IMG/VR virus record: IMGVR_UViG_3300028833_000071 | DNA: 64,000 bases | Direction: 5' to 3' (one strand) | From: a virus | Taxonomy: Duplodnaviria; Caudoviricetes | Shown: positions 7,116 to 52,259 of the stretch, one piece after another | Layout: each line of letters starts with the position of its first letter | How positions within the stretch are numbered: the first letter of the stretch is position 1 | Program-made: the position numbers and the translations under genes | The notes under the pieces: generated by a model | Told to the model about the DNA's origin: nothing | Database searches by the model: none | The model's input: only the letters and a program-made list of their open reading frames with translations

Positions 7116-7208
7116 AATTTTATTTATTTATAATAAATAGTTTTTTGTTAAAAACAAAAAAGCACGCCTTTTCAGATGTGCCTTACCTAACATTAGCTGA
7201 ATTTTTAT

Positions 7209-7247: not shown

Positions 7248-8396
7248 TTAATTGTTGTATGCAATTTTACTAATTTTAATCCATTGTGAATCTTTATATT
7301 CTTCAAGTGTTCTTGAATTGGTATAACTCATGGCAGATTTAAGATAATCAGTTTCATTTTCAACCCATCCTTTAAGGTCATATTCCACTTTTTGATATTT
7401 AATAAGGCCTTCGGATGTTTTTAATTTTGAATTGGAATTATTACCTTGATTAATCAATGATTGAGCTATTTTGGTACTTTGACCAAAAAATTGTTTCCAA
7501 ACGGTCAATTTTCCTTGTTTTATTAATTTAAATACCTCTTTAAATTTATTTTGTGGTATTTCTTTACCATAGTAAAATAAAGTTGTCAAAGGCCTCAAAA
7601 TCTTATTGCCACGAATATTCCAATAAAAACTACCATATGTGGTTTTACCGTTACTTTCAATGGTTTTATTGAACATACTTCCTATCATAACATAATCGGC
7701 ATAAATCAATGCTTTTTGGATATCCCTATATCCATGTATACCGCCGTCAGCGATTATTTTACACTTACCGCCAATTTCTTTTTTAGTTTTATAAATCTCT
7801 GATAGCAAAGAAAATACACCATAATGTAGTCCAAGATTACTCGAAGTTAAACAGGCATTTCCTGAACCTATACTGCATCTGAGAAAGTCTAAACCCGCTT
7901 CTTCATAATCTCGATAAGTTTCAGGATTGGCAATATTACCAGTCATAATTAAAATTTTATCACCATAGGCTTTTTTAATTTCCTTAACCAAATCAACAAG
8001 ACATTTCATATGGCCATTAGCCAAATCAATGCAAATTCTTAATGATTTGATTATACTTTCAGTATTTAATATTTCGTCAAAAACGCCATCATTAAAAAGT
8101 GCTTTTGTTTCATTTAATGAAAATGCAATAAAATTATATTTTCCAACAGTCTTTGCCTCGTCAATCATAAATTCCAAACGTTCTTCCAATGAATAGTTTC
8201 TTGGAATAACTGTATAAATTTTATTTTCGTTAAAACATTTTGCGTTTTCCATGGAAACAACCGAGGTCATGCAGCTTGCAAATATCGGCAAATATCCATT
8301 CTCATCATAAGGATTACATTCACTTCGAGATTCAATTGTTGTAATTCTTTCAGGGATAATTGTTACATCATCATAACCAAGTTTAAAATCTTCCAT
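7248..8396 (-). CDS. guaC: GMP reductase / IMPDH family protein
   Basis: LGYDDVTIIP, SRSECNP, IDLANGH, GSGNACLT catalytic Cys, IIADGGI, VMIGSMF, SAMSYT. Confidence 0.85.
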   Translation of the reverse strand: MEDFKLGYDDVTIIPERITTIESRSECNPYDENGYLPIFASCMTSVVSMENAKCFNENKIYTVIPRNYSLEERLEFMIDEAKTVGKYNFIAFSLNETKALFNDGVFDEILNTESIIKSLRICIDLANGHMKCLVDLVKEIKKAYGDKILIMTGNIANPETYRDYEEAGLDFLRCSIGSGNACLTSSNLGLHYGVFSLLSEIYKTKKEIGGKCKIIADGGIHGYRDIQKALIYADYVMIGSMFNKTIESNGKTTYGSFYWNIRGNKILRPLTTLFYYGKEIPQNKFKEVFKLIKQGKLTVWKQFFGQSTKIAQSLINQGNNSNSKLKTSEGLIKYQKVEYDLKGWVENETDYLKSAMSYTNSRTLEEYKDSQWIKISKIAYNN

Positions 8397-8405
8397 TTCT
8401 AATTT

Positions 8406-8903
8406 TTAATTTATTTCAACATATTCAATTTTATCAGTTGCTTTGCTATAGCCATATACAGAATAAAAAGTTTCCTCAGTATAATCACAATAATCAACTT
8501 CAACACCCTCTTGTATCCAACATTTATCAACTGCCTCTTTCCACAATTTATACATCTTCTTTACATCACGAATTTTCATATCATCTTCTTCATAAGGTGG
8601 AATATAATGAGTGCTTTTAAGCAATTCTTCGCTTATAAATTCTGTGAGATTGTCAAAACTTTTTGATTTTTTCAAATTGCTGTAATCATTATATTCATAC
8701 ACAAGTGGAATAAAATTACACTTTGGGCATAATTTAAAGATTTCATCAACAAATGGTTTAATGCATATAATACTATTTTCACTTGTTGAACACTCTTTAA
8801 TAATATCCTCCGTTAGAGATTTCATAACGCTTTCAACATTTTTTTTGGAAGTGTCTGTCCCGATAAAATCAATTAAATTCTTAATTATTTCTTCTCTATT
8901 CAT
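8406..8903 (-). CDS. hypothetical protein
   Basis: 165-aa ORF in minus-strand operon. Confidence 0.7.
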   Translation of the reverse strand: MNREEIIKNLIDFIGTDTSKKNVESVMKSLTEDIIKECSTSENSIICIKPFVDEIFKLCPKCNFIPLVYEYNDYSNLKKSKSFDNLTEFISEELLKSTHYIPPYEEDDMKIRDVKKMYKLWKEAVDKCWIQEGVEVDYCDYTEETFYSVYGYSKATDKIEYVEIN

Positions 8904-8924
8904 TTTATTTAAAAATTTTAATTA

Positions 8925-9425
8925 TTATTTTCTATTTAAAATTTCAATCGCAAATTTCACGTCAATATCATCAATACCATGCATTGAATTAACATGGACA
9001 AAGTTTAATTTTTGTTCCTCTGTGAAGTCTGTTCTATCATCAATTATTACAAATCTTTCACATTCAGGGTGTTGTGATAACCAATCATCAATTTCAGAGC
9101 CTCTTGAAGTAAATCCTGAAAGTTCATCACAACAAGACATAATCCACATATGTTCAGGCGTTTTATCAATGATAAGGCCTTTATTAATACCACCTTTTTC
9201 AATCCTGTCAATACGATGTGGCCAATTTATTCTCCAATCACTTGAAAGAACTATTTTGGCCCCTGTTTCTTGGCATATCTTATTAATTCTTTCGGCACAT
9301 AATGGGTCAATATCACCTTCTTGGCCATTAAGATTACCTGGATTTCTGTCTGACATAAACCAATCCTCACTATTGATAACCCCATCAATATCAAGAAAGA
9401 TAATCTTAATTTTATTTGTTTCCAT
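8925..9425 (-). CDS. HAD-family phosphatase (RNA-repair-associated HAD type)
   Basis: IIFLDIDGVIN, IVLSSDWR, RGSEIDDWL, FVIIDD. Confidence 0.85.
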   Translation of the reverse strand: METNKIKIIFLDIDGVINSEDWFMSDRNPGNLNGQEGDIDPLCAERINKICQETGAKIVLSSDWRINWPHRIDRIEKGGINKGLIIDKTPEHMWIMSCCDELSGFTSRGSEIDDWLSQHPECERFVIIDDRTDFTEEQKLNFVHVNSMHGIDDIDVKFAIEILNRK

Positions 9426-9439
9426 AATTAAAATTATAA

Positions 9440-10522
9440 TTATTTATTAAAATTTCTCAATAAATCTTTTTGTTCATCAGTTAAACTTTTTGGTAATTCA
9501 TAATTGATTACTACAGCGTAATCACCGATATTACCTCTGCCTGTTACATCAGGCATACCTTTACCTTTAAATATAAAGGCTTCACCTGGTTTGGTTAATT
9601 CATGGGCATTTAATGTAATATTAGTTCCATCAACACATTTTATCTCTTTTGTAAAGCCAAGTAATGCTTCGGTAAATGGAACACTTTCATAGTGTATGAC
9701 ATTAAATGGGTCGGGGCGTTCAAAATATCCATCGCCAACAACATTAACATGGATAATTAAGTCACCGTTAATTCCGCCACCTTCACAGGCATTTCCTTTA
9801 CCATCAATTCTAAATGCCATACCATCGACTATGCCTCTTGGTATTTTGATTTCTTCATTTATATATTCACTAATTAATCCCGTGCCACCGCATTCTTTAC
9901 AGGGTGCGACTGAATTATCTTTGCCACTACCATGGCATTTTCTACAAGGGTGTGTAGTGGTGAAAATCTGGTTAGGGCCAAATTGTTTTCTTTCAGTTTC
10001 CATGCCTGTTCCATGACAAACACTACATTTATGGTCTTTACCATCTTCGCTACCATGTCCATTACAATGTGGGCACTTTTTCTCTTTTTGGACCTGTATG
10101 GTCTTTTTGCCGCCCTTATATGCTTCTTCAATAGTTAAAGTAACTTCAGCGTGTGCATCACTTCCTTTTCTTACCTGTTGTTGTCTTCCCCTAAACATAC
10201 TTTTAAATGGATTTCCACCGCCCATACCATTCATTCGCATAAAAATATCCATTGGGTCAAAACCACCGAAATTAAAATCCATACCACCATTATCATATTG
10301 TGCTCTCTTTTGTGGGTCTGACAATACTTCATAAGCCTCTGCTACATCTTTAAATTGGTCCTCAGCCTTTTTTTGTTCACTTTCAGGTTCGTTTACCCAT
10401 CTATCTGGATGTAATTTCAAAGCAAGTGCATGATATTTTTTCTTGCACACGGCATTGAACTTTTCTTCATCAAGTTTCTTTTCCTCTTCGGTTATTCCGA
10501 GTATATTATAATAATCTTTCAT
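9440..10522 (-). CDS. dnaJ: chaperone DnaJ
   Basis: J domain with HPD, G/F region, four CxxCxGxG repeats, C-terminal domain. Confidence 0.95.
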
Positions 10523-10675
10523 GTTTTATTTTAAACCACATTTCTTGTTGAAGATACAAAAAAATTATAAAAAAAACAAAAAAAAGGACAATTATATACC
10601 AGTTAACACAAATACACAATTAGTCCTTAAATGTAAAAGTAATTTTTAAAATTGGAATTTGTTTTCAAGTCTCTA

Positions 10676-10684
10676 ACTATTTAT
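10676..10684 (+). promoter_or_regulatory. putative phage late promoter motif ACTATTTAT
   Basis: Recurs shortly upstream of structural/lysis genes at about 12 sites in the window. Confidence 0.6.
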
Positions 10685-10707
10685 TAGAGAGCAAATAAAA
10701 AAGTATA

Positions 10708-11541
10708 ATGAATAAAAACATGGCAAGAAACAACCAAAAACTTATCAACTTCCACACAAGCGGCAATACAGAAGTGCCGTTGGAATCATTGTTCTACGGC
10801 GAAATCGCCGTAAGACACTGTTCAGGCGATTCAGCCGCTGAACTTATTATCAAAAACTCGGAAAACACAAGCGCTGTTTTCGTTGAAACGGCAAAAATGT
10901 GCATCGACTGCGGAACTTGGGACGGCGGAGATTCACACGAATATGTTGACCTTGGATTACCATCTGGCACTCTTTGGGCAACCTGCAATATAGGTGCTAA
11001 CTTACCTGAAGAGTTTGGCTTGTATTTCCAATGGGGTGACACTCAAGGATATACCTCTGCACAGGTAGGTACTGACAAGGTATTTAGTTGGGCTAATTAC
11101 AAATACAGCAGCGCTGGTAGTAGTTCTGTGATGACCAAATACAACTCAAGTGACGGCAAAACTGTTCTTGACCTTGAGGATGATGCTGCTTATGTCAATT
11201 GGGGAGAAAATTGGAGGATGCCCACAGTTGACCAGATAAGTGAATTGATAGATTCAGAGAATACCAGTCATGAATTTACTTCAATGAATAATGTAGAGGG
11301 TATATTGTTTACATCATTGTCCAATGGTAATACGTTGTTTGTCCCTTCTGCTGGTCTCGCTTACGGTACTTCAGTCGATGGCATTGGTGAGGTCGGTGGC
11401 TGTTGGTCTTTACTGAATAGTGAGTATGTCGGCTATGCGCAGGAATTGTATTTCAATTGGATGGAGGATGATGTCTACGTCTACAACTACGAACGGTACT
11501 ACGGGTTCTCTGTGCGTCCTGTGCGTGTTCAGAACCAATAA
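10708..11541 (+). CDS. fibre/receptor-binding protein with DUF1566/Fib_succ_major-like C-type lectin domain; likely DGR target
   Basis: GEIAV..IDCGTW N-module, HEYVDLGLPSGTLWATCNIGA, WRMPT, C-terminal YGFSVRPV; NNC-rich 3' codons; paralogue at 51435. Confidence 0.8.
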   Translation: MNKNMARNNQKLINFHTSGNTEVPLESLFYGEIAVRHCSGDSAAELIIKNSENTSAVFVETAKMCIDCGTWDGGDSHEYVDLGLPSGTLWATCNIGANLPEEFGLYFQWGDTQGYTSAQVGTDKVFSWANYKYSSAGSSSVMTKYNSSDGKTVLDLEDDAAYVNWGENWRMPTVDQISELIDSENTSHEFTSMNNVEGILFTSLSNGNTLFVPSAGLAYGTSVDGIGEVGGCWSLLNSEYVGYAQELYFNWMEDDVYVYNYERYYGFSVRPVRVQNQ

Positions 11542-11558
11542 AAACAAACAAAAGAACA

Positions 11559-11600
11559 ACACATCCTGTTCTGTTCCACAAGAACAGGCAAACAGGATGT
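11559..11600 (+). other. hairpin downstream of putative DGR variable region
   Basis: CACATCCTGTT...AACAGGATGTG stem with inner CTGTTC/GAACAG stem. Confidence 0.55.
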
Positions 11601-11736
11601 GTTTTTCAAAAAGATAGAATGCTCAGTTTTTTTCACTAAAAATCAAAAAATTAGGCGATTTTCAGGGGAAAACCGCCAAAATTTTTGTGCTAACTAGTAT
11701 ATAATTGCCAAAAAAAGAACGCATTTTATGCGTTCC

Positions 11737-11761
11737 TTGTGCCATCAGGTATATAGTTCCC
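11737..11761 (-). repeat. orphan IS1595-type terminal inverted repeat
   Basis: TTGTGCCATCAGGTATATAGTTCCC, exact reverse complement of 15619-15643. Confidence 0.75.
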
Positions 11762-11788
11762 TTATTTTAACCATAGTAGCAGTTATGG

Positions 11789-12913
11789 TTAAGTTTTTAT
11801 AATTCTAAACCTATATGATTGACAATATTCATTTAAAGTCGGCCATTCGAGTTTGTCAATCATTTCGTTGAAGACATTTTCAGATATTTGCCCTTTTCTT
11901 CTTTCAATATTAACCAACAAACAGCTTGCCTCAACATAGTAATAAAACCATTCAACATTGTAATTTGAAAGTAATGTTTTATAACTATTACGATATTCCT
12001 TTTTAAGATTAAGATTATCAATGACAATTCTTTTACCTTGTTTAGCTGCTTGAAGAATTTTTTCCTCAAATACTTTTGTGACTTCGTTTTCTTTACCTTT
12101 ACTAAGAACAGTCTTTTCGTCTTTTTTACAATAGCCAAGTTCTTCACGAATTGTGTCACGACTAATAATTATATCAGCCTCATTATTATTGATTAGTTGT
12201 TGTGCTATTGTTGATTTACCTGAACCAGGAAGACCAATCATAACATAAACAGTAATTGTTTTTTTGTTTTGATAGTCAAGATAGTTTTTATAATCATGCA
12301 AATAATCATAAAATGGGAAATAACGACAACACATTTTATCAATAATATTTTCAAGACTTGTCATTTTAATTAAATCAGCATTTTTACCATTCTCATCTTC
12401 AGGCTTAGACCCTAATATATCACATCGCTTAAGAAGCATAAGAACATACATGGATGGTACTTCTCGTGAAATTTCAGCAATTTTCCCGAGCGGGTCTTTA
12501 GAATCAAAGAGTTGAAGGGCCATCATATGGTATTTTACAAGGGCACAAACACCTTCTCTGAAATCACAGTCCTCATCCCAAAGAAGTCGTCTTGTTATCT
12601 TTTCCCCCTCAAATTCATGACCATAAGAATGCCATCTACCATCTTTACCTTGATGTGTAGTTACCGATTTTCCAATATCATGGAAAAGTGCTGAAGTTAA
12701 AAAAAGTTTAGCAAAATAATCTTCCCATATCTGACAAGTACAGATTCGAATGGCTTCCTTACACACTAATTTTACATGTTCCCATGCATTACCTTCTCCG
12801 TGCCATTTAGGACTTTGTTCACACTTTTTTAACTTTTTGAATTCAGGGATTTTCTCGATTTCATCCCATTTATATTCTAAATTTTCAAAATCTATAAGTT
12901 TATCAATCTTCAT
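11789..12913 (-). CDS. HD phosphohydrolase fused to P-loop polynucleotide kinase (AAA_33)
   Basis: QSPKWHGEG..WEH, ALFHDIGK, GHE..G, MIGLPGSGKST, SRDTIR, IDNLNL. Confidence 0.9.
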   Translation of the reverse strand: MKIDKLIDFENLEYKWDEIEKIPEFKKLKKCEQSPKWHGEGNAWEHVKLVCKEAIRICTCQIWEDYFAKLFLTSALFHDIGKSVTTHQGKDGRWHSYGHEFEGEKITRRLLWDEDCDFREGVCALVKYHMMALQLFDSKDPLGKIAEISREVPSMYVLMLLKRCDILGSKPEDENGKNADLIKMTSLENIIDKMCCRYFPFYDYLHDYKNYLDYQNKKTITVYVMIGLPGSGKSTIAQQLINNNEADIIISRDTIREELGYCKKDEKTVLSKGKENEVTKVFEEKILQAAKQGKRIVIDNLNLKKEYRNSYKTLLSNYNVEWFYYYVEASCLLVNIERRKGQISENVFNEMIDKLEWPTLNEYCQSYRFRIIKT

Positions 12914-13352
12914 CGTTATTTTCTATTATTTTCCAATCAAAATTAACATAATCATTTAAAAAATCATTCATTTCTTCATTGGTATTAAAGTGTTTAACAT
13001 ATTGACTCCCATCTAAAAAATGAAATTTACAAAGAGGCCTATTATACCATTTTTGCTCAACAGTATCAAACATTATCGTATTGTTCCAATCATCTATTGC
13101 TTCCTCAATTGAAGAATATACAATATCAGCACAACGCCACCTATCTTCTTTAGCAATAAGTTTATAACCGCTTCTAAAACATTCAAAAAACCGATAAATT
13201 CTATCTTCTTTTGGAAATATACAAAGCAATAAACTGATGCCTACGCTATAGTCTTCACCTTTTTTAATAAGACTTAGACTATTATTCTCTTTCTTGTTAT
13301 AAACATCAATATGTGATAAATTTTTAAAAACTATTTTATCCATTTCACTCAT
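12903..13352 (-). CDS. hypothetical protein (start likely MSEMDK, overlapping upstream stop)
   Basis: 3' part of the listed 180-aa ORF; the extended start overlaps the neighbour. Confidence 0.65.
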   Translation of the reverse strand: MSEMDKIVFKNLSHIDVYNKKENNSLSLIKKGEDYSVGISLLLCIFPKEDRIYRFFECFRSGYKLIAKEDRWRCADIVYSSIEEAIDDWNNTIMFDTVEQKWYNRPLCKFHFLDGSQYVKHFNTNEEMNDFLNDYVNFDWKIIENNDED

Positions 13353-13737
13353 TCCATTCAATTTTAATTGTATCAATATAGTCGTCATTTGGTACATGGC
13401 TATTAAAAGCCTCTTCATAACTATGAAAAGGTTGTTGGCATCCAATCATTATACCATTGTGATATTTATATAAATTAATCCATGCTTCTTTCTTAATAGG
13501 AGCCATAATCAATTTATAATTTAAATTACCATTCATTGGCTCACCGTCTTCAGTATATGATATTATTTGCTCGTTGTCATTATCTTTACCCTGTACAAAC
13601 ACGACTAACGGATAATTAATACCATTTTTTTCCATCTTTCTATTATGGCAGATAATACGAGCATTATATCCACCAATTGTTTGTATTGAAAAACCTTCAA
13701 GTGTTTTTTCTAAATTAAACATTTTTATCATCTTCAA
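13345..13737 (-). CDS. hypothetical phage protein
   Basis: FNLE..L.G..I.T..G..ARIIC..R....YPLV motif common in Bacteroidota phages. Confidence 0.75.
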   Translation of the reverse strand: MKMIKMFNLEKTLEGFSIQTIGGYNARIICHNRKMEKNGINYPLVVFVQGKDNDNEQIISYTEDGEPMNGNLNYKLIMAPIKKEAWINLYKYHNGIMIGCQQPFHSYEEAFNSHVPNDDYIDTIKIEWNE

Positions 13738-14032
13738 ATATTTTTAATTCTTTTATCCAATATAAATCAACATAATCATAATATAACGCAGAATTCACTG
13801 CATCTTTGTGTTTTTTCTTTTGTAGTTTTTTTAACTCTTCATATGACATATCACCACGCCAATAAGATTGAACCTCTTTAACCAAATCGGAATTTCTTGC
13901 ATATTTGGGCGTTCCATATTTGTTCACAGCCCATTCATGGATGATTTCCTCACATTTTGAACGGTCTTTGAAACAATAATCGTCATAATCTCTATTTCCA
14001 TGCCTTGTTTCAATTACATAAACGGTTTCCAT
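13715..14032 (-). CDS. hypothetical protein
   Basis: 105-aa ORF, translationally coupled. Confidence 0.7.
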   Translation of the reverse strand: METVYVIETRHGNRDYDDYCFKDRSKCEEIIHEWAVNKYGTPKYARNSDLVKEVQSYWRGDMSYEELKKLQKKKHKDAVNSALYYDYVDLYWIKELKIFEDDKNV

Positions 14033-15618: not shown

Positions 15619-15643
15619 GGGAACTATATACCTGATGGCACAA
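15619..15643 (+). repeat. IS1595-type terminal inverted repeat
   Basis: GGGAACTATATACCTGATGGCACAA. Confidence 0.75.
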
Positions 15644-15672
15644 AGTCAGTCTGAACAAGGCTGACTTTTTTA

Positions 15673-16185
15673 TTATTGATTCATAAAATCGTTTGTAAAA
15701 TATGATAAAGCGGATATGGCTCCGCCAACTACGCCTCTATATATCGGATAGAAGCATAATTCTCCCTGTTTATTGTCATACCATAGAATGTGTTTCCTGT
15801 TGTAAGGAAAAGAATGAACAATACAATTAAGAATCGTATTAAGGTGTGATTTGCTTCTTAAAGCATTGTCAAATACCCAAGCTCTTATATGTACACAATC
15901 GGTTTTCATAATACGATTTGTTTCGTCAATTCCTAAGAAATGCTTAGTAGCATTCCTTAATGATTCATAGCATTTGGATGTTACCATGTTAGCGTCATCC
16001 AACACATAATACCCAAGAACAACTATTCCTTCTTCTGATGGGGAATATACGATTATTGCATCATCAGGAATATTTCTGAATGTCTGAACGCATTTTTCGT
16101 AAGTGTTATCATTTAAACGCAGGTTTTCAAATGGAACACACATTATTTCGTTTATAATTGGATTTGGATGTAATTCTACATACAT
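15673..16185 (-). CDS. hypothetical passenger protein
   Basis: 170 aa; upstream Bacteroidota -7 element TATCTTTG (about 16209-16216 minus); terminator hairpin 15643-15670. Confidence 0.7.
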   Translation of the reverse strand: MYVELHPNPIINEIMCVPFENLRLNDNTYEKCVQTFRNIPDDAIIVYSPSEEGIVVLGYYVLDDANMVTSKCYESLRNATKHFLGIDETNRIMKTDCVHIRAWVFDNALRSKSHLNTILNCIVHSFPYNRKHILWYDNKQGELCFYPIYRGVVGGAISALSYFTNDFMNQ

Positions 16186-16261
16186 AATTGTGAGAGTTTA
16201 AATTGACTGCAAAGATATGATTTTTTAAGATATTCGACTATTTATAAAGAAAATATAGTCA

Positions 16262-17401
16262 ATGATTGCAGCGAACATAATAAGTGGCATACTACAACGA
16301 TACAAACAAATATGCGCCAAATACCCGCAATCCCCTTCGTTTATACCCAATACCAATGGTGACTCGTTTTATCTTGTAAGAGAAAGAGATGGGAATCGCC
16401 CTGTTCAAGTTCGTATTTCCAATCATGGCACATATCTTAGCAAATGGTGTGATAGGGAAGAATTGGGGAATAGTGTTGAAAGACTTGACCCTGCATTATG
16501 TGACAACATATCAATTGCTTTTATTGACGATGGTAATGATATAACCAAGGATTGCAAGGGAAGACAAGATTGTGAAGACTGCAATATTCAACCTTGCATA
16601 CCACAAACATTCGATGGACAGAATGAGTTGGGAAAACCGTTTAAAGTTATACAATACACCTATAAAAGCAGTCAAATTTCACCAAGGTATATCAACGGGC
16701 TTACCAAAGCTATTGCAGAAGCAAGTGTAAGCGGAAAGTATAACGACCCGTTGGCTAATCTTGTGAAAGCTGCAAAGAAAAAACCACTTTCATCATCAGA
16801 AAATAACCAAGAAATAAAAGAGAATAAGAATAATAAATACAAGAAAATGAATAAGAAACAAGTAATTAGAATTAATGAAAATCAACTCAAACAGATAATA
16901 ATGGAATCTGTGAAAAATGTTATAAAAGAAACCAAGTTCCAAAGAGGATATTATAACATTACGGATGACATGTCTTTTAGAGACATACAAGACAGAATGC
17001 GCTATTTTGGTATAGAAGGTGGAAGAATGGCAGAACCTAATTATCTACCGAAACAATGGATTAAGAAACGTCTACGCCCTAAGGATACAGAATATGTATA
17101 TAATGTTGAAAATCTAATTGATAAGCCAAATATTGTGTCAGTTCTTGACACTGGTACTGATACTTTTTTTGGTGTTGATAAAGACGGTAATATTTATGGT
17201 AATGGGAATCCTGATGAATGTATTGGTAATTTGAACACTGATAAGATATATGGAACAGGATGTTTTGGTGATTATTGTTGGTTGATAGTGTATAAAGATG
17301 AAAAACAAGCTTTGTTTGATTACAGAGGAATTATATGTTACGGTAAAGTGATTCAATTAGATAACGGAACGTATTTCTTTGCAACTAAGCAGCGCACTTA
17401 A
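16262..17401 (+). CDS. putative internal virion protein with internal IRINENQL..ESV peptide
   Basis: Late motif at 16237; VRISNHG N-domain; MNKKQVIRINENQLKQIIMESVKNVIKE at 16847. Confidence 0.75.
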   Translation: MIAANIISGILQRYKQICAKYPQSPSFIPNTNGDSFYLVRERDGNRPVQVRISNHGTYLSKWCDREELGNSVERLDPALCDNISIAFIDDGNDITKDCKGRQDCEDCNIQPCIPQTFDGQNELGKPFKVIQYTYKSSQISPRYINGLTKAIAEASVSGKYNDPLANLVKAAKKKPLSSSENNQEIKENKNNKYKKMNKKQVIRINENQLKQIIMESVKNVIKETKFQRGYYNITDDMSFRDIQDRMRYFGIEGGRMAEPNYLPKQWIKKRLRPKDTEYVYNVENLIDKPNIVSVLDTGTDTFFGVDKDGNIYGNGNPDECIGNLNTDKIYGTGCFGDYCWLIVYKDEKQALFDYRGIICYGKVIQLDNGTYFFATKQRT

Positions 17402-17597
17402 CGGTTTTCACGTCCTCAAACGTCACCACATTAAGGGCTCGTTCCATAAGGACGGCAAATCTTTCACCACCCTTTAATCCACGGTTGTTGTACCTGAAGA
17501 CGGCTTCGTCAACATAACGCTGCATGTACTTGCGTGAAACGTAGTGGTATGTCCCGTACACCATACGCTTGAACTGTCCCCAAAAGCCTTCAATCGT
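17385..17597 (-). pseudogene. IS1595 (ISXO2-like) transposase C-terminal fragment
   Basis: Translates TIEGFWGQFKRMVYGTYHYVSRKYMQRYVDEAVFRYNNR..., the IS1595 C-terminal signature; no start. Confidence 0.85.
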
Positions 17598-17656: not shown

Positions 17657-19213
17657 ATGGGCAAATATAATTCATATTTAGATGTTGAGCCTCAAATAGA
17701 AAATACCAAGGACGGTACTAAGAAAAAGATTAATTTTTGGGGTATTAAAGATAGACAAGACGCAGAAAATATATTAGATGCAATTACTGAACCTGGCGAT
17801 AGTACATTTGCAAGAAAAGGTTTACCTGGTAAAAATATTTTAAGAGCATGGTATACGCCTTCAAGAACTAATATGGGCCTTTTTGTGGTTGTTGCAAATG
17901 AAGCAGTTGAAGATTTTATAAATACAGGCTTAAGAAGCATAATATTTTCATTGCTTAAAAGTAATAATTATGATAAAGAAAAAATAGCAAATCTTGAGCA
18001 TGAAGTTGCACATAAGTTGGAAACAAGTGATAGTTGGGCTGATAAAAGGAAAGCATTGGCAGACGCTGATGTTCATGTTGCTGACCTTTGGCAACGATAT
18101 TTAAATAACATAAATGACCCTGTTACAAGAGAAGCCCTTAAACTATATTCTCAAATTTATACAACAACATCATATGGCCATGCTTTAAGTTTGGCTAATG
18201 TTATGCGTATTAGGGCTATTAACCCCGATGCAACATTTGTACTTTCAGAAACAGTATGGAATTCGTGGGGCTATGGCATTAAAAGAGGTGCTAAAAAATA
18301 TCCTTTATGGGCTGTTCGTTTTACACAAGGAATATCAAAAAAGGATTTGGAAAATGCAAAAGCAAAACTTGGCCATGAACTTGAACAATTAGGTGATTTA
18401 GGCGTTGCTGTTCAAGAAGCAATCCGTATTGAAGCAGAAAAAGAGGCTAATAAAGGTTTGAAACCTATGTTTATACTATATTATGGTTATGATATTGCAG
18501 ATACATATCAATATAATTCCAAAGAGGTAAGTCCTTTGATGTCAAAACCGAATATTTCAAGTAATGTTGTATATAAGTTAAATGCTTTGGCACAAAAACT
18601 TGAAGATGAGAAGGAAAAAGGCTTAGGCGAAAAAGAAAAAGAAATAAGGGATACAACTGACATGAAATATAATGTTGCTTCTGAAACAATGATAAATTTA
18701 TGCGAAAAAAACGGTATTAAAACAGAAGATATAGTTAACAATAGTACCTCTAACCAAAAAAAATTAATAAATTTATTAGATGCCTATTATAATTATATAA
18801 TAAATGCATCTTCAAATAAAAAGAGCCCGAATAAAATCAATGTTTTAAAACCTGAAAATATTCAAAATTATATTCAAGATGCAATTCAATTAACATTATT
18901 AATGAATAGCATTCCATTTAACAAGAATGATTTTACACATTCGGAAATATATAATCAAAACGAAGCGGCAACACTCGGCCCAATTATTAGAACAGCAGCT
19001 GAAGCGATTGGTAAAGCATTGAACCCTAAACAAAAAGATAATGTTAATGAGGGTATTTTTGAAGAAGGTGCATTTGGTTTATCATTTGACGAAGCATTGA
19101 AAAAACTTGGTATTAAAGTAGTTTCCGACAATACGCCTGAAATGCAAATGGAGGCAATCAAAGAGAATTTCAATAAAATGTTAAATAGAATTAATAATCC
19201 TATAATTTATTGA
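17657..19213 (+). CDS. large protein with ArdC-like (DUF1738) ssDNA-binding domain, putative virion-delivered
   Basis: SLANVMRIRAINPDATFV....W..WG..IKRGAK; late motif at 17633. Confidence 0.65.
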   Translation: MGKYNSYLDVEPQIENTKDGTKKKINFWGIKDRQDAENILDAITEPGDSTFARKGLPGKNILRAWYTPSRTNMGLFVVVANEAVEDFINTGLRSIIFSLLKSNNYDKEKIANLEHEVAHKLETSDSWADKRKALADADVHVADLWQRYLNNINDPVTREALKLYSQIYTTTSYGHALSLANVMRIRAINPDATFVLSETVWNSWGYGIKRGAKKYPLWAVRFTQGISKKDLENAKAKLGHELEQLGDLGVAVQEAIRIEAEKEANKGLKPMFILYYGYDIADTYQYNSKEVSPLMSKPNISSNVVYKLNALAQKLEDEKEKGLGEKEKEIRDTTDMKYNVASETMINLCEKNGIKTEDIVNNSTSNQKKLINLLDAYYNYIINASSNKKSPNKINVLKPENIQNYIQDAIQLTLLMNSIPFNKNDFTHSEIYNQNEAATLGPIIRTAAEAIGKALNPKQKDNVNEGIFEEGAFGLSFDEALKKLGIKVVSDNTPEMQMEAIKENFNKMLNRINNPIIY

Positions 19214-46485: not shown

Positions 46486-46569
46486 ATTGTCAACATTTTC
46501 CTTTTGAATTTTTTTTTTAAAAAGATTAATTATATTTTCAAGTATTTTTTTTATTTTTAATTTTAATTA

Positions 46570-47134: not shown

Positions 47135-48553
47135 TTATTTTATTGGTGAAGTCATATAATATTGATAATGATACCATCCGTTAAGTAAGTTTATTGCGTC
47201 CTGTTGAACCATACTATTTGTTGACACTTTTAATGTTAAAGTACCGGTGTAGTTCATAGTAAAAATTACAGTTGTATCTGCTGAAGAATTGGCTGGTACA
47301 CTAACAGTTTTAATAAGAGTATTATTACCATATATATTAACATCTACATCAGAATTTTGGCTATTTGTAAGAGTTGGTAGATGAAGCCCATATGTATTGA
47401 CACTTTTAAAATTGTCTATACTAGCGAAATCTTTGGTGGATGAATTAATACTTACAGCAGAACAGTAGTAAGTTGGTTCTTGTATTTTTCCAATTTCAGG
47501 GTCATTAAATTCATATTTATATCCTGGCCTTATTGCTTTTGTGTTGTTAAATGTTAATATTTTATATTTTTTTTCAGTTAAAAAGCCACCTGAATCGTTA
47601 ATTATACAAGGTGCCATTTGTCTTGTATTACCACTTAAGAGCAAATAAGGATTTAAATTTGTATAATAATCACTATTTACTGCCGGAATCATACTGGAAG
47701 TTAAAGAATGGTTTATACTGTTATAAGTTCTTGCTGCAACTGTTTCAGCATCAGTTTCGCCTGTTGTAGCATTTACAACTAGTGGGGTATTAAAAGTTGC
47801 AGTAAAGCCCTGTGTTGCTCCGTTAAAAAAACCTTTTCTCTGTAAGGTTCCTGTGACAGTAGTTGAAGTATTAGAACTTGTAGAAAGGCAAATAAATCCG
47901 TCAGTGCCGGTATATAAGGTTTTTGGTTTACTTCCTTCTAATTGTGGAAAAATTGTTGTTTGATTATCTATTGCAACTTTTACGCCTTGTATTGGTTGAC
48001 CATCATATACAACTTTTACACTTATTTCATTTTCTCGCACAAAATTATTGGTGTTAGTAATACCTATTCCTGAGCATACTTGGTTATAATCCTTAACACA
48101 TGCAGATTCACTTGTATATGATTGGCCCCAAAGAGTAATCCAAGTCTCAAGGGAAGTATGTGTTGTTGTAGATAAGACAATTGGAATATAGCCCACAATA
48201 CTTTGGCTTGAAAGATTACCGACTTGTGGCGTTGATGCAGTATAACGTGCTTTATAATATAAATTAATTTTAGAAGCGCCACTAAGATTACGTAATTTAA
48301 TTACATTATCTGCTACACTTTGAAATACGCTTGCATAACTATCAGCCATATTTCCCGAAAAACTACGATTCCTATCAAAGTAACCATGTAATGAATTTAA
48401 TGCATATGTATATCCGCCACCAGACCATCCCCAATTTACATTATTTATGTCAGACGGGTCAAATGTCCCTTCGGTAGTTGTGTTTGAATATGCATTGCTA
48501 TAATATCCATAATTACGTAATTCAGCCGCTAACCAATAATAATAAGTAGCCAT
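47135..48553 (-). CDS. putative virion structural protein (Ser/Thr/Asn-rich, beta-sandwich)
   Basis: Start MATYYYW at 48553 after late motif 48581-48589. Confidence 0.7.
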   Translation of the reverse strand: MATYYYWLAAELRNYGYYSNAYSNTTTEGTFDPSDINNVNWGWSGGGYTYALNSLHGYFDRNRSFSGNMADSYASVFQSVADNVIKLRNLSGASKINLYYKARYTASTPQVGNLSSQSIVGYIPIVLSTTTHTSLETWITLWGQSYTSESACVKDYNQVCSGIGITNTNNFVRENEISVKVVYDGQPIQGVKVAIDNQTTIFPQLEGSKPKTLYTGTDGFICLSTSSNTSTTVTGTLQRKGFFNGATQGFTATFNTPLVVNATTGETDAETVAARTYNSINHSLTSSMIPAVNSDYYTNLNPYLLLSGNTRQMAPCIINDSGGFLTEKKYKILTFNNTKAIRPGYKYEFNDPEIGKIQEPTYYCSAVSINSSTKDFASIDNFKSVNTYGLHLPTLTNSQNSDVDVNIYGNNTLIKTVSVPANSSADTTVIFTMNYTGTLTLKVSTNSMVQQDAINLLNGWYHYQYYMTSPIK

Positions 48554-48633
48554 ATTAAAATCTTTTATCTTTATTTCTTTATAAATAGTTACGACATTGA
48601 AAATTAACAATAAAATAAGTGTTTTCTTTTTTC

Positions 48634-48651
48634 TTTGGCATAATTTTTGTA
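48634..48651 (+). promoter_or_regulatory. sigma54-like promoter
   Basis: TTTGGCATAATTTTTGTA upstream of 48686. Confidence 0.6.
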
Positions 48652-48685
48652 TATTAAGTTCATGGAAATTTAAAAACTTGGAAAA

Positions 48686-50002
48686 ATGGAAATTAAGACT
48701 TATTACGACATTTTAACTTATTTAAAAGAAGTTATCAAAGGTACTGAATATGAGGGCCATGTATTTTCTGTTGGAGGCTGTGAGCGAGATAAGCATCTTG
48801 GTTCAGATACCATCAAGGATATTGATATTGTTGTTGACCTTATGGATGGTGGAATTCGTTTCGCAAAGTGGCTTGAATCTAACGGACACACTAAAGGTTC
48901 CGTAGTTGTGTACGAGAACTTTGGCACAGCCATGTTCAAACTCAAGGAATTTCCTGACGAGGAAATTGAAACCGTACACACAAGAAAGGAAACCTACAGG
49001 GACAAGAACAGCCGTAACCCTGAGACTGCATTCGGAACAATCAATGACGATTGTTTCCGTAGGGACTTTACCATCAACTCATTATACCACAACATTTCAA
49101 AGGATGAAGACCTTGACTTGACTGGTAGAGGCTTTGATGACCTTGAAAAAGGACTTATCTACACTTGCTCTTCTCCTGATTTAATCTTCACCGAGGACCC
49201 ATTAAGGCAATTAAGAGCCGCAAGGTTTTCTGCAAAACTTGGTTTCCTTATTGATAATGATGTTTTTGAATCAATGAAAAGGAACATTGAACGCCTTAAA
49301 ATCATTTCTCAGGAACGAATCACCGATGAATTCAATAAGATTCTGATGTCTGGCCATCCATATATTGGATTGAGCTATCTTAATGACATTGGCTTTTTCG
49401 ATACTATTACCCCGTACCTGTTCACTTATGAAAACGGAGAAAGAAATGAGGCCGCAAAGGAAGGTGCATTTGAATCTGTATTGGAGATTGTTGAAAAATA
49501 CAACTACGACCTTGAAACCGTTCTTGGTGCATTTGTCCAGAATTGGTATTGTGAAAGTAAGCAGAGAAATAAGTTCCTAAAGGAATTCAAGTACTCAAAC
49601 GATACTATTAACAAAGTAAACTTCTATGCAATGAAAGCATTTCCTCTTGAACTTGCTTGTAAGTGGAAACTTGGAAGCAAAATCCGTGAGATTGCTTATG
49701 AATGCAACACGATTGAAGATTTCAGCCACATTGTTGCAATTGCAAAATCATTCCCAAGACTAAAAGACGGAATCTGTGTATTTAATTTTCTCAAAACAAT
49801 TGATATTGATGAAATGATTGGGTATAAACTCCCCGTCAATGGTGACGATATTATGGAAATTCGTGGCATAGGCCCATGTAAAGAAGTAAAAACAATAATT
49901 GACCATTTGCTCGAATGCGCATTCATGAATCCAAAAATCACAAGAGACGAATGCGTTGAAATAATAAAAAATGTTAAACTAAAAAATATTGTAGTAAAAT
50001 GA
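48686..50002 (+). CDS. cca: tRNA nucleotidyltransferase (CCA-adding/poly(A) polymerase family)
   Basis: VGGCERD..LG...KDIDI, FGT, D..RRDFTINS, EDPLR.LRA.RF, ISQERI..E. Confidence 0.92.
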   Translation: MEIKTYYDILTYLKEVIKGTEYEGHVFSVGGCERDKHLGSDTIKDIDIVVDLMDGGIRFAKWLESNGHTKGSVVVYENFGTAMFKLKEFPDEEIETVHTRKETYRDKNSRNPETAFGTINDDCFRRDFTINSLYHNISKDEDLDLTGRGFDDLEKGLIYTCSSPDLIFTEDPLRQLRAARFSAKLGFLIDNDVFESMKRNIERLKIISQERITDEFNKILMSGHPYIGLSYLNDIGFFDTITPYLFTYENGERNEAAKEGAFESVLEIVEKYNYDLETVLGAFVQNWYCESKQRNKFLKEFKYSNDTINKVNFYAMKAFPLELACKWKLGSKIREIAYECNTIEDFSHIVAIAKSFPRLKDGICVFNFLKTIDIDEMIGYKLPVNGDDIMEIRGIGPCKEVKTIIDHLLECAFMNPKITRDECVEIIKNVKLKNIVVK

Positions 50003-50574
50003 GCGGAAAAGATGTTTTGACCCTTTTATTGTGTTCATTCGGGTATGATAGAAACATAAAAATCGAAGTGACAAATGTTGGCTATAGCGAGCCAATGTAT
50101 GATGTATATGCTGAAAATAAAGATGGTGATGTATATGAGCAAATTGATAGTGAGGGGCTTATGTTTCATATATACGAAATCATTTCATATATGACAGAAT
50201 ATAATAAGTACATAAACGGTCCGTCAGAAAAAACTAAAAATTTTGATTTAAACAATTTGCATTTTGAAAGCAAATGGTGGGGTGTTGCGCCAAAGCACAT
50301 ACTTAATGCGGAGACAAGAGAAAAAATAATAAAGGAAAATGACGAAAGGGATGAAAGAATAAAGCAAGAAATCGAAAGAATGAAACCATTTGATAAATGG
50401 GTCGAAGAGCATAATCCATGCAATTCTTGCACAGAAAAAGTTCCTTTGACATCACTTCCTTCAGGATGGCATCACGATTGTGAAATATGTTATAATGGAA
50501 GATGCCCAAAAATGAGACATTTTTTGGATGTGGAGTATAAAGAAGAACTTAAAAAATATAGAGATGGAAAATAA
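49999..50574 (+). CDS. hypothetical protein with C-terminal Cys/His cluster
   Basis: CNSC...CEIC...C. Confidence 0.7.
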   Translation: MSGKDVLTLLLCSFGYDRNIKIEVTNVGYSEPMYDVYAENKDGDVYEQIDSEGLMFHIYEIISYMTEYNKYINGPSEKTKNFDLNNLHFESKWWGVAPKHILNAETREKIIKENDERDERIKQEIERMKPFDKWVEEHNPCNSCTEKVPLTSLPSGWHHDCEICYNGRCPKMRHFLDVEYKEELKKYRDGK

Positions 50575-51434: not shown

Positions 51435-52259
51435 ATGGATTATCATTATACAGATATTTTTGAAATTGATGGGCAACTGATTGTTGCTGAAACGATTGAA
51501 GAGGCAATAAAATTGGCTTATGCTTTTAATGTATTGAATGATGGTTATGAGGTTACAAATATCAGACGTATAACGGCTGATTATCCACATACATATTATG
51601 CAATTGAAGAAGAAAAGGAAAATTGTCCGGGTTTAGGAATAGGAATCTCATCTCATGAATATGTTGACCTTGGATTGCCAAGTGGTACACTGTGGGCTAC
51701 TTGCAATATAGGTGCTGAAAACCCCGAAGATGCTGGCTTGTACTTCCAATGGGGTGACACTCAAGGATATACCGCTGCACAAGTAGGTACTGACAAGGTA
51801 TTTGATTGTGTACACTACAAATACAGCAACGCTGATGGCTCTGAAATGACCAAATACAATTCAACTGATGGCAAGACAGTCCTTGATAACGAGGATGACG
51901 CAGCCTATGTTAATTGGGGTAGTGATTGGAAGATGCCTACATTGGCTGATATAGAGGAATTGACTGCCAATACCACTCACGAAGTCGTTACTGTCAACGG
52001 TGTATCTGGTATGAGTTTCACTAGTAAAAACGGTAATGGTAATAGTATTTTTGTTCCTTTTGCTGGCTGTGCTGGTGAGAATGATGTTCTTTATGTTGAA
52101 AAGATAAGAGTATGCTATTATTGGTCAAGTTCACTCAATAGTGAGTATAATAGTTTTGCTCATAAACTTTATGTTAAAAATAATGGGAACGTCTATATCC
52201 GCAGCGAGAATCGTTGTGTCGGCTTCCCTGTGCGTCCTGTGCGTGTTCAGAACCAATAA
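51435..52259 (+). CDS. DUF1566/Fib_succ_major-like lectin-fold protein; second likely DGR target
   Basis: HEYVDLGLPSGTLWATCNIGA...YWSSS...GFPVRPVRVQNQ; last 32 nt identical to gene at 10708. Confidence 0.8.
   Translation: MDYHYTDIFEIDGQLIVAETIEEAIKLAYAFNVLNDGYEVTNIRRITADYPHTYYAIEEEKENCPGLGIGISSHEYVDLGLPSGTLWATCNIGAENPEDAGLYFQWGDTQGYTAAQVGTDKVFDCVHYKYSNADGSEMTKYNSTDGKTVLDNEDDAAYVNWGSDWKMPTLADIEELTANTTHEVVTVNGVSGMSFTSKNGNGNSIFVPFAGCAGENDVLYVEKIRVCYYWSSSLNSEYNSFAHKLYVKNNGNVYIRSENRCVGFPVRPVRVQNQ

Follow-up and report, generated by a model that had tools for sequence, protein, structure and literature searches.

The window analysed here, a 64,000-nucleotide stretch of the tailed-phage record IMGVR_UViG_3300028833_000071 (Duplodnaviria; Caudoviricetes), carries at positions 10587–11709 a segment of 1123 bp that is probably a non-autonomous element of the IS1595 insertion sequence (IS) family. 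Specifically, we interpret it as a mobile insertion cassette (MIC) whose passenger is a lectin-fold gene with a variable carboxy terminus in the style of diversity-generating retroelement (DGR) targets. The lectin gene belongs to a family that is hypermutated by retroelements in related phages. The window corresponds to positions 50118–114117 of a 147,462-bp IMG/VR virus contig (genome G000) from a large rumen-type phage, with a completeness of about 41% (CheckV). Coordinates are those of the window unless given as genome positions; at position 46552 the window has T and the genome record has C, a single-base difference. The cassette and its borders comprise the following features, where IRL and IRR denote the transposase-proximal and passenger-side inverted repeats of the IS.

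10579–10586: left-hand copy of AAAAAAAG, an 8-bp flank repeat and putative target-site duplication.
10587–10611, + strand: left terminal inverted repeat, in the IRR position, starting with GA.
10676–10684, + strand: ACTATTTAT, a promoter-like upstream motif that is kept upstream of a homologous gene in contig L092.
10708–11541, + strand: cargo gene of 277 amino acids (273 if the start is the ATG at 10720, as in L092 and in protein collections).
11344–11523, + strand: DGR-style variable region (VR), distinguished from a paralogue at genome 48171–48950 by differences in 24 of 61 codons.
11554–11607, + strand: compound hairpin followed by a T-run, intrinsic-terminator-like (dG −27.9 kcal/mol, z −7.3).
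11620–11684, − strand: remnant, about 65 nt long, of an IRL subterminal region, with an inward hairpin and T-run at 11677–11654.
11685–11709, − strand: right terminal inverted repeat (IRL).
11710–11717: right copy of AAAAAAAG, which doubles as the − strand T-run and first stem base of the adjoining hairpin.
11718–11761, − strand, outside the cassette: hairpin (11718–11736) and solo IS end (11737–11761).

The two ends are identical at 22 of 25 positions (or show 92% complementarity over 24 nt), and the same 8-mer flanks the pair on both sides. Both features had been noticed in an initial annotation made from the sequence alone, and both are confirmed here. A 23-nt core of the end motif, with at most three mismatches allowed, matches just these two sites in the window and has no occurrence in dinucleotide shuffles (n = 100), and the whole genome holds two further near-exact copies of the motif and about eight looser ones. 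Only base 2 distinguishes the left end from the one that lies upstream of the L092 homologue. Ends of the ISNwi1 subgroup are of the type GGnnATTAT, which would fit the ends described here.

The identity of these repeats is revealed by the genes that the same motif encloses elsewhere. An intact IS1595-family transposase of 311 amino acids, for which the initial annotation had suggested searching, is encoded at genome 91–1026 (203.7 bits against NCBIfam NF033547, with a cut-off of 75, and 154.6 bits against Pfam DDE_Tnp_IS1595). The contig starts about 50 nt inside this intact IS, and the other end of the IS is the copy of the motif at genome 1647–1671. Inverted copies of the motif also bracket homologous transposases (98%, 55%, 51% and 39% identity; L007/L136, L008, L009 and L120), with 8-bp duplications of TTTTAATT in L008 and TTTACAAT in L120, and the complete IS in L007/L136 measures 2160 bp. 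The motif flanks a transposase gene in L197 as well, encloses a 90%-identical transposase in a metagenome-assembled genome of Bacteroidales, and is common in ruminant-gut Bacteroidales assemblies. This recurrent bracketing of transposase genes across contigs, together with 8-bp duplications, indicates that the repeats at 10587–10611 and 11685–11709 are IS1595-family terminal inverted repeats, as had been proposed.

The same facts bear on the explanation that the repeats are sites at which recombination inverts the segment, or that they form a regulatory palindrome. The repeats are indeed inverted around a single gene that is opposite to its neighbours, but in many contigs the motif brackets transposase genes with 8-bp duplications, and the segment has one orientation in all three assemblies that contain it. 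Moreover, flipping would change little, because the cargo gene is equipped with an upstream motif and a terminator of its own. This explanation is thus extremely unlikely: an invertible segment was rejected on the duplications, the transposase association and the single orientation, and a plain promoter motif was rejected on the first two of these.

The interior of the cassette also follows the plan of a complete IS. The intact IS consists of IRL, about 125 nt, the transposase gene and a convergent small passenger read inward from IRR, with a hairpin and T-run just inside IRR. In the cassette, positions 11630–11713 (the right end and its interior) are 90.6% identical over 85 nt to an IRL-type end at genome 11667–11751, and the right-end region aligns with the left (IRL) side of the complete IS in L007. 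Beyond this remnant the similarity ends, and the transposase gene expected next is absent. Reading inward from the remnant, one meets instead the terminator hairpin of the cargo, the cargo gene, ACTATTTAT and the left end, such that the cargo is read inward from IRR and the polarity of the cassette equals that of the intact IS. The only real open reading frame (ORF) between the ends is that of 277 amino acids, and DDE_Tnp_IS1595 has no match inside; thus, the description of the cassette as transposase-less holds. The predicted downstream hairpin is also present. It begins 13 nt past the cargo stop codon and looks like an ordinary terminator.

The surroundings of the cassette suggest where it may have landed. 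The solo end at 11737–11761 matches the IRR of the complete L007 IS at 25 of 25 positions. If the cassette and one copy of AAAAAAAG are removed from the site, an A-run, a hairpin and an IRR remain, which is the usual IRR-side architecture. The other IRL-type copy, at genome 11671, likewise lies just after a hairpin and T-run. This copy belongs to a pair of facing ends of the cassette's subtype (genome 11671–21913, in L001 and L004, approximately 38.4 to 28.2 kb before the window) that are 10.2 kb apart and identical at 24 of 25 positions; the left one carries IRL subterminal sequence, the right one an IRR-type hairpin, and matching 8-bp flanks are absent.

Elements of the same build occur elsewhere. 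We scanned IMG/VR with a degenerate form of the end motif, paired the ends and annotated the cargo by Pfam. Other cargo between such ends, which the initial annotation had proposed seeking, was found in several transposase-less elements with differing genes.

L099, 1028 bp, perfect duplication ATAAAATA: 245-amino-acid homologue of the window gene.
L119/L130, 2045 bp, perfect duplication TTTATTTT: three ORFs, no Pfam match.
L123 (8073–8574), 502 bp, perfect duplication TAAAGTTA: 95-amino-acid ORF with a Cas12f1-like/TnpB TNB domain (E = 4.5e-25).
L118/L152, 355 bp, perfect duplication TTTTTTAA: 90-amino-acid ORF, no Pfam match.
L139, 494 bp, duplication A8: 144-amino-acid ORF, no Pfam match.
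Genome 122317–123602 (L154), 1286 bp, A8: 291-amino-acid ORF, no Pfam match.
L124, 1590 bp, no clear duplication: BspA-type leucine-rich-repeat protein.
L151, 1592 bp, no clear duplication: BspA-type leucine-rich-repeat protein.
L126, 1862 bp, no clear duplication: HATPase_c_3 protein and transposase remnants.

The element at genome 122317–123602 lies 8.2 kb past the end of the window; its ends are identical at 19 of 25 positions and enclose a ACTATTTAT motif. The 8-bp duplications and passenger genes ascribed to the IS1595 family at the outset are therefore seen both in these sister elements and in the transposase-bearing ones. A decayed copy of the IS is also present in the window, with the following extent.

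15619–17564: decayed IS1595 copy, with an end and hairpin (15619–15643, + strand), a pair of cargo ORFs and a fragment from the C terminus of the transposase (17385–17564, − strand).

Its ORFs encode 170 and 379 amino acids, only the last 59 or so transposase codons remain, and a gene at 17657–19213 replaces the rest of the transposase.

The cargo family itself is repeatedly associated with such ends. Within unrelated phage flanks, L092 shares with the window the left end and the upstream region, followed by a gene 67% identical to the cargo; its homology with the window starts at the end motif and ends 19 nt past the stop codon. Three homologues of the cargo gene in the 401-kb phage genome G006 retain a right end, and an end lies within about 300 bp at 4 of 16 IMG/VR loci with cargo homologues. 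Together with the L099 element, these cases point to a recurrent association, involving at least three end subtypes, between this lectin gene family and IS1595 ends.

The initial annotation had attributed a lectin fold to the cargo protein. A model of the protein was produced with AlphaFold from a 12-sequence alignment (pLDDT 59.9, the C-terminal half better), and residues ~71–277 were covered by structure searches. Exhaustive structural alignment (VIA-align) of this portion placed only C-type-lectin folds in the top ranks, including the following proteins along with formylglycine-enzyme-type (FGE) domains and animal lectins.

Legionella Lcl C-terminal domain: Z 6.0.
Mtd: Z 5.7.
TaqVP: Z 5.5.
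TvpA: Z 4.9.

In the Atlas, the neighbours of the cargo are DUF8237/Lcl_C clusters from Bacteroidota and their viruses. The coherence of the structural list and these neighbours support, despite the modest Z values, a predicted C-type-lectin fold (Lcl_C/DUF8237-like) for residues ~71–277. Both the fold and the DGR-style variable C terminus described below are thus borne out. The cargo family is very large and comprises Bacteroidales and phage proteins, with more than 4,800 members at E ≤ 1e-30, many of which are fused to Big_2, dockerin or BACON domains.

In contrast, the proposal that the gene encodes a fibre or receptor-binding protein gains no support. Pfam yields a sub-threshold Lcl_C match alone, NCBIfam and PHROGs give no match to the whole protein, and the N-terminal 81 amino acids have no Pfam match at E ≤ 1. 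The N-terminal ~75 amino acids are without a family match, and the neighbouring genes are DnaJ-like, HAD_SAK_2 and HD/kinase genes, with no tail genes among them, so that 'fibre' and 'receptor-binding' are guesses. The claim of a late promoter motif fared better in part. ACTATTTAT occurs 27 times in the genome, about threefold more often than the approximately 8.6 copies expected, and 26 of the 27 copies are followed within 50 nt by an ORF of at least 50 amino acids on the same strand. The motif is therefore a real gene-proximal signal and a candidate phage promoter or leader element, whereas late expression is not borne out. Its copies in the window include those at 7133, 10676, 16237, 17633 and 26056. 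The window also holds a paralogue of the cargo gene.

51435–52259, + strand: cargo paralogue of 274 amino acids, with a different N terminus and no IS ends.

The variable region was recognized by comparison with the paralogue at genome 48171–48950. Approximately 190 nt (about 60 codons) directly before the VR are near-identical between the two genes, and within the VR the differences fall on codon positions 1, 2 and 3 in the numbers 17, 11 and 7. Upstream, third positions dominate (Fisher p = 7e-4). Of the invariant VR sites, 15% are adenine, compared with 29% for the gene as a whole. In a sister subfamily (L097, L098 and L099) this signature is sharper: differences number 22, 21 and 4 by codon position (p = 1e-5), variable codons are NNC or NNT, and adenine accounts for 11% of invariant sites.

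The invariant VR positions of the sister subfamily were turned into a pattern that was scanned on JGI metagenomes, and this led to a template repeat (TR) in L287, a fragment of a related large phage that is in places 79% identical to the 412-kb phage genome G007 and 71% to G006. The 191-nt TR has AAC or AAT at every variable codon and lies directly upstream of a DGR-type reverse transcriptase (RT) gene. Its adenine content is 30%, and three VRs differ from it as follows.

L098 VR: 31 differences, 29 at TR adenines.
L099 VR: 32 differences, 27 at TR adenines.
L290 VR: 30 differences, 26 at TR adenines.

This concentration of differences at the adenines of a TR that stands beside an RT gene indicates that the VR of the L099 cassette gene descends from a real DGR. 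The RT of L287 (10080–10979) aligns over 289 amino acids and has an open frame of 251, and it may be truncated or frameshifted in the contig. The proposal that DGR-type variable genes ride on IS1595 cassettes is therefore supported through L099, which has both ends, the ATAAAATA duplication and a VR matching a real TR, but not through the window copy.

Could the window copy nonetheless be an active, portable target that has VR, homing signal and hairpin in cis and is therefore still diversified wherever the cassette has transposed, by a DGR that belongs to the host, to a relative infecting the same cell or to the unsequenced part of the phage? The VR with its DGR-style signature, the strong hairpin shortly past the stop codon, the TR match of the sister L099, the low completeness of the genome and the existence of remote DGR targets (PMC8144416) are all compatible with this possibility. 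However, the 147 kb of G000, approximately 41% of the genome, contain no RT detectable with the RVT_1 profile or two DGR RT proteins and no TR-like repeat for the window VR, and two patterns for such a TR each had no match in IMG/VR; the search for a DGR that the initial annotation had proposed is thus negative for this portion of the genome. The VR is identical in three assemblies, two of them from other samples, and the 90% protein cluster of the cargo consists of a single sequence. The complete genomes of G006 and G007 (401 and 412 kb) encode cargo homologues, and no RT was found in them. Finally, the hairpin resembles a common terminator. We consider ongoing diversification of this copy rather unlikely, and the claim that it is under DGR mutagenesis is not sustained. 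Given that three assemblies agree in the VR and that neither RT nor TR was found in the 147 kb, the window copy looks like a fixed, currently stable allele of the cassette.

Other retroelements were encountered near cargo homologues. RT genes are present in G009, G010 and L287. The DGRs of G009 and G010 were ruled out as acting on the local cargo homologues, as their TRs match neighbouring genes, and an RT in L286 near a cargo homologue was dismissed as its DGR, as no TR matches that gene. Canonical DGRs occur in two phage contigs with cargo homologues (L283, 329–470 and 1113–1254; L096, 6430–6524 and 6683–6777), with adenine-to-N differences numbering 32 in one and 5 of 5 in the other, and each targets a different neighbouring gene. 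Independent assemblies (L109, L110 and three more contigs with an identical HD/kinase protein) all break near 11262–11292. Because the cargo gene is there near-identical to the paralogue at genome ~48530–48720, the break looks repeat-induced rather than caused by VR heterogeneity.

Several observations weigh against the interpretation of the segment as a mobile cassette with a DGR-type lectin passenger. The ends of the cassette match those of the resident intact IS at only 17 and 20 of 25 positions and are of a different subtype. An exact end-motif search of IMG/VR returned only the L092 contig; therefore, no autonomous partner of this subtype is known. The left end opens with GA, whereas ends of the family open with GG, and L092 has the left end only, with no right end. 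An empty site, a second copy or an excision product of the cassette was not found. The lectin fold comes from a mediocre model, with Z values no higher than 6; Foldseek against the PDB returned nothing at E ≤ 0.001, and a PDB sequence profile returned nothing meaningful. The window VR is less clean than that of the sister subfamily: seven changes fall on third positions, one codon is inserted or deleted, and adenines are conserved in blocks. Lastly, the flank duplication AAAAAAAG is low in complexity, because nearly all copies of the end motif in this genome abut A or T runs. The family here apparently prefers such runs as sites, which weakens the duplication as evidence. Among non-partner combinations of ends in this genome, 2 of 30 match at 8 of 8 flank positions, both as A8, and hence the duplication is modest rather than decisive evidence.

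These flanks are central to a further explanation, in which the segment is not a unit at all: two independent solo IS1595 ends would flank a resident phage gene, and the A-rich flanks would reflect site preference. Solo ends are indeed common in this genome, the L092 gene has just one end, and the pair of 24/25 ends 10.2 kb apart has no duplication. However, both ends of the cassette belong to the same rare subtype, which is represented by 4 copies in 147 kb and by one other IMG/VR contig, and they face inward with exactly the IRL/IRR polarity of the intact IS. The 8/8 match of the flanks includes the non-A base of AAAAAAAG, and none of seven non-partner combinations reproduces it. Furthermore, the cargo is the sole + strand gene among neighbours that are all on the − strand, and the duplications of similarly built sister elements are unambiguous. 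Two unrelated solo ends are therefore an improbable account of the segment, and the cassette remains the reading that we prefer.

Evidence for movement was sought at the insertion site, between the DnaJ-like and HD/kinase genes. All contigs with an identical HD/kinase protein contain the cassette and none shows an empty site. A distant blastn search of 8400–14000 against GenBank phages gave no match, a search for IMG/VR relatives through the HD/kinase protein found none, and an exact search with the left flank in JGI metagenomes had 0 matches; the empty site or second copy that had been anticipated was thus not recovered. Relatives with 67–74%-identical HD/kinase proteins have other downstream genes and are therefore unusable as empty sites.

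The site lies within an RNA-repair/chaperone-like block (7248–12913) of IMPDH/GMP-reductase-like, HAD_SAK_2, full-length DnaJ, and HD plus AAA_33 kinase genes. Relatives carry genes for a CCA-adding/poly(A) polymerase and RlaP downstream in place of the window's arrangement. In the spacer after the HD/kinase gene, the relatives L111 (6125–6200) and L112 (6122–6215) have TGGCAC-N5-TTGA, which resembles a sigma-54 −24/−12 promoter, and L114 (7261–7350) has the same sequence in the spacer after the gene that follows HD/kinase. A hairpin and T-run come next in all three spacers. TGGCAC is also present in the IS end, within its inner half.

We propose the following origin for the cassette. The presence of both ends and an IRL subterminal remnant without a transposase gene suggests an ancestor that was a passenger-carrying IS1595 element, arranged as IRL, transposase, convergent passenger and IRR, from which the transposase gene would have been lost by internal deletion. 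After the deletion there would have remained the two 25-bp ends, a stretch of approximately 65 nt of IRL sequence that includes an inward terminator, and the passenger, accompanied by a phage-type upstream motif and a terminator of its own. This unit may then have inserted into an A/T run that adjoins an older solo IS end at its hairpin, duplicating 8 bp. It would be mobile only if a transposase of the family acts in trans. A DGR may have written the window VR, either in an ancestor or from the unsequenced portion of the genome. Most likely, the net result of such cassettes is a spread, from one large phage genome to another, of binding modules that are ready-made and self-expressing. More tentatively, and with doubts similar to those raised by active diversification of the window copy, IS1595-derived cassettes might disseminate variable lectin genes of the DGR type through large Bacteroidales phages, where copies might be rewritten in trans by a co-resident DGR of the L287 type. 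On this account, the VR travels in the cassette along with its 3′ signals, and a phage lacking an RT could therefore receive binding modules that are already diversified. If true, transposition would be coupled to retroelement hypermutation across replicons.

The components of this system are already known singly: MICs, passenger-carrying IS1595 elements, viral MITEs (miniature inverted-repeat transposable elements) and remote DGR targets (PMC3129680, PMC11602168, PMC8144416). MICs are exemplified by MIC231, derived from IS231 of Bacillus cereus, and the term is that of the ISfinder authors for transposase-less, passenger-carrying products (PMC3129680, which cites De Palmenaer et al. 2004 for the class). 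The window element resembles them in having IS ends without a transposase around a passenger, and MICs move only with a cognate transposase that an intact IS in the same cell provides in trans. It differs from MIC231 in its IS family (IS1595 rather than IS4/IS231), in residing in a large phage replicon and in its hypervariable lectin-type cargo with a phage-type upstream motif. Its mobilization in trans is a proposal. Transporter ISs of the IS1595 family with passenger genes (Siguier, Gagnevin and Chandler 2009, as cited in PMC3129680) share with the elements described here the NF033547 transposase family, GG-starting ends of about 25 bp, 8-bp duplications and internal passengers. Unlike them, the window element has lost its transposase gene, and the elements are carried by phages, in whose genomes ISs are reportedly rare (PMC11602168).

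MITEs have been described in genomes of prokaryotic viruses (PMC11602168), and like them the elements here are non-autonomous, bounded by inverted repeats and common to phages and their Bacteroidota hosts; some sister elements are even MITE-sized (355–502 bp; L118, L123 and L139). Unlike the non-coding MITEs, the cassette carries a complete, expressed-looking gene. With Mtd of Bordetella phage, TvpA of Treponema and TaqVP of Thermus the cargo protein shares its fold class and a VR at the extreme C terminus. With DGR variable proteins in general it shares variation at codon positions 1 and 2, NNC/NNT codons and a related subfamily with a bona fide TR and RT, whereas the window copy has no known TR or RT, lies inside a transposable cassette and has homologues in complete phages without RT. 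Our literature search found no report of an IS1595 lineage diversifying inside large phage genomes, nor of DGR-type variable genes as cargo of transposase-less cassettes. To our knowledge, a DGR-type variable gene inside such a cassette has not been described.

A single IS1595 lineage has thus left many traces in large rumen-type phages, including intact and truncated copies, solo ends, MITE-sized derivatives and gene cassettes. The occurrence of cargo homologues in complete phages without RT raises the questions of whether DGRs act on targets of another replicon and whether transposition 'freezes' and exports diversified alleles. The cargo of these cassettes includes lectin-fold proteins and BspA-type leucine-rich-repeat proteins, which resemble binding modules. 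If the cassettes move, large phages could swap self-expressing binding genes without homologous recombination.

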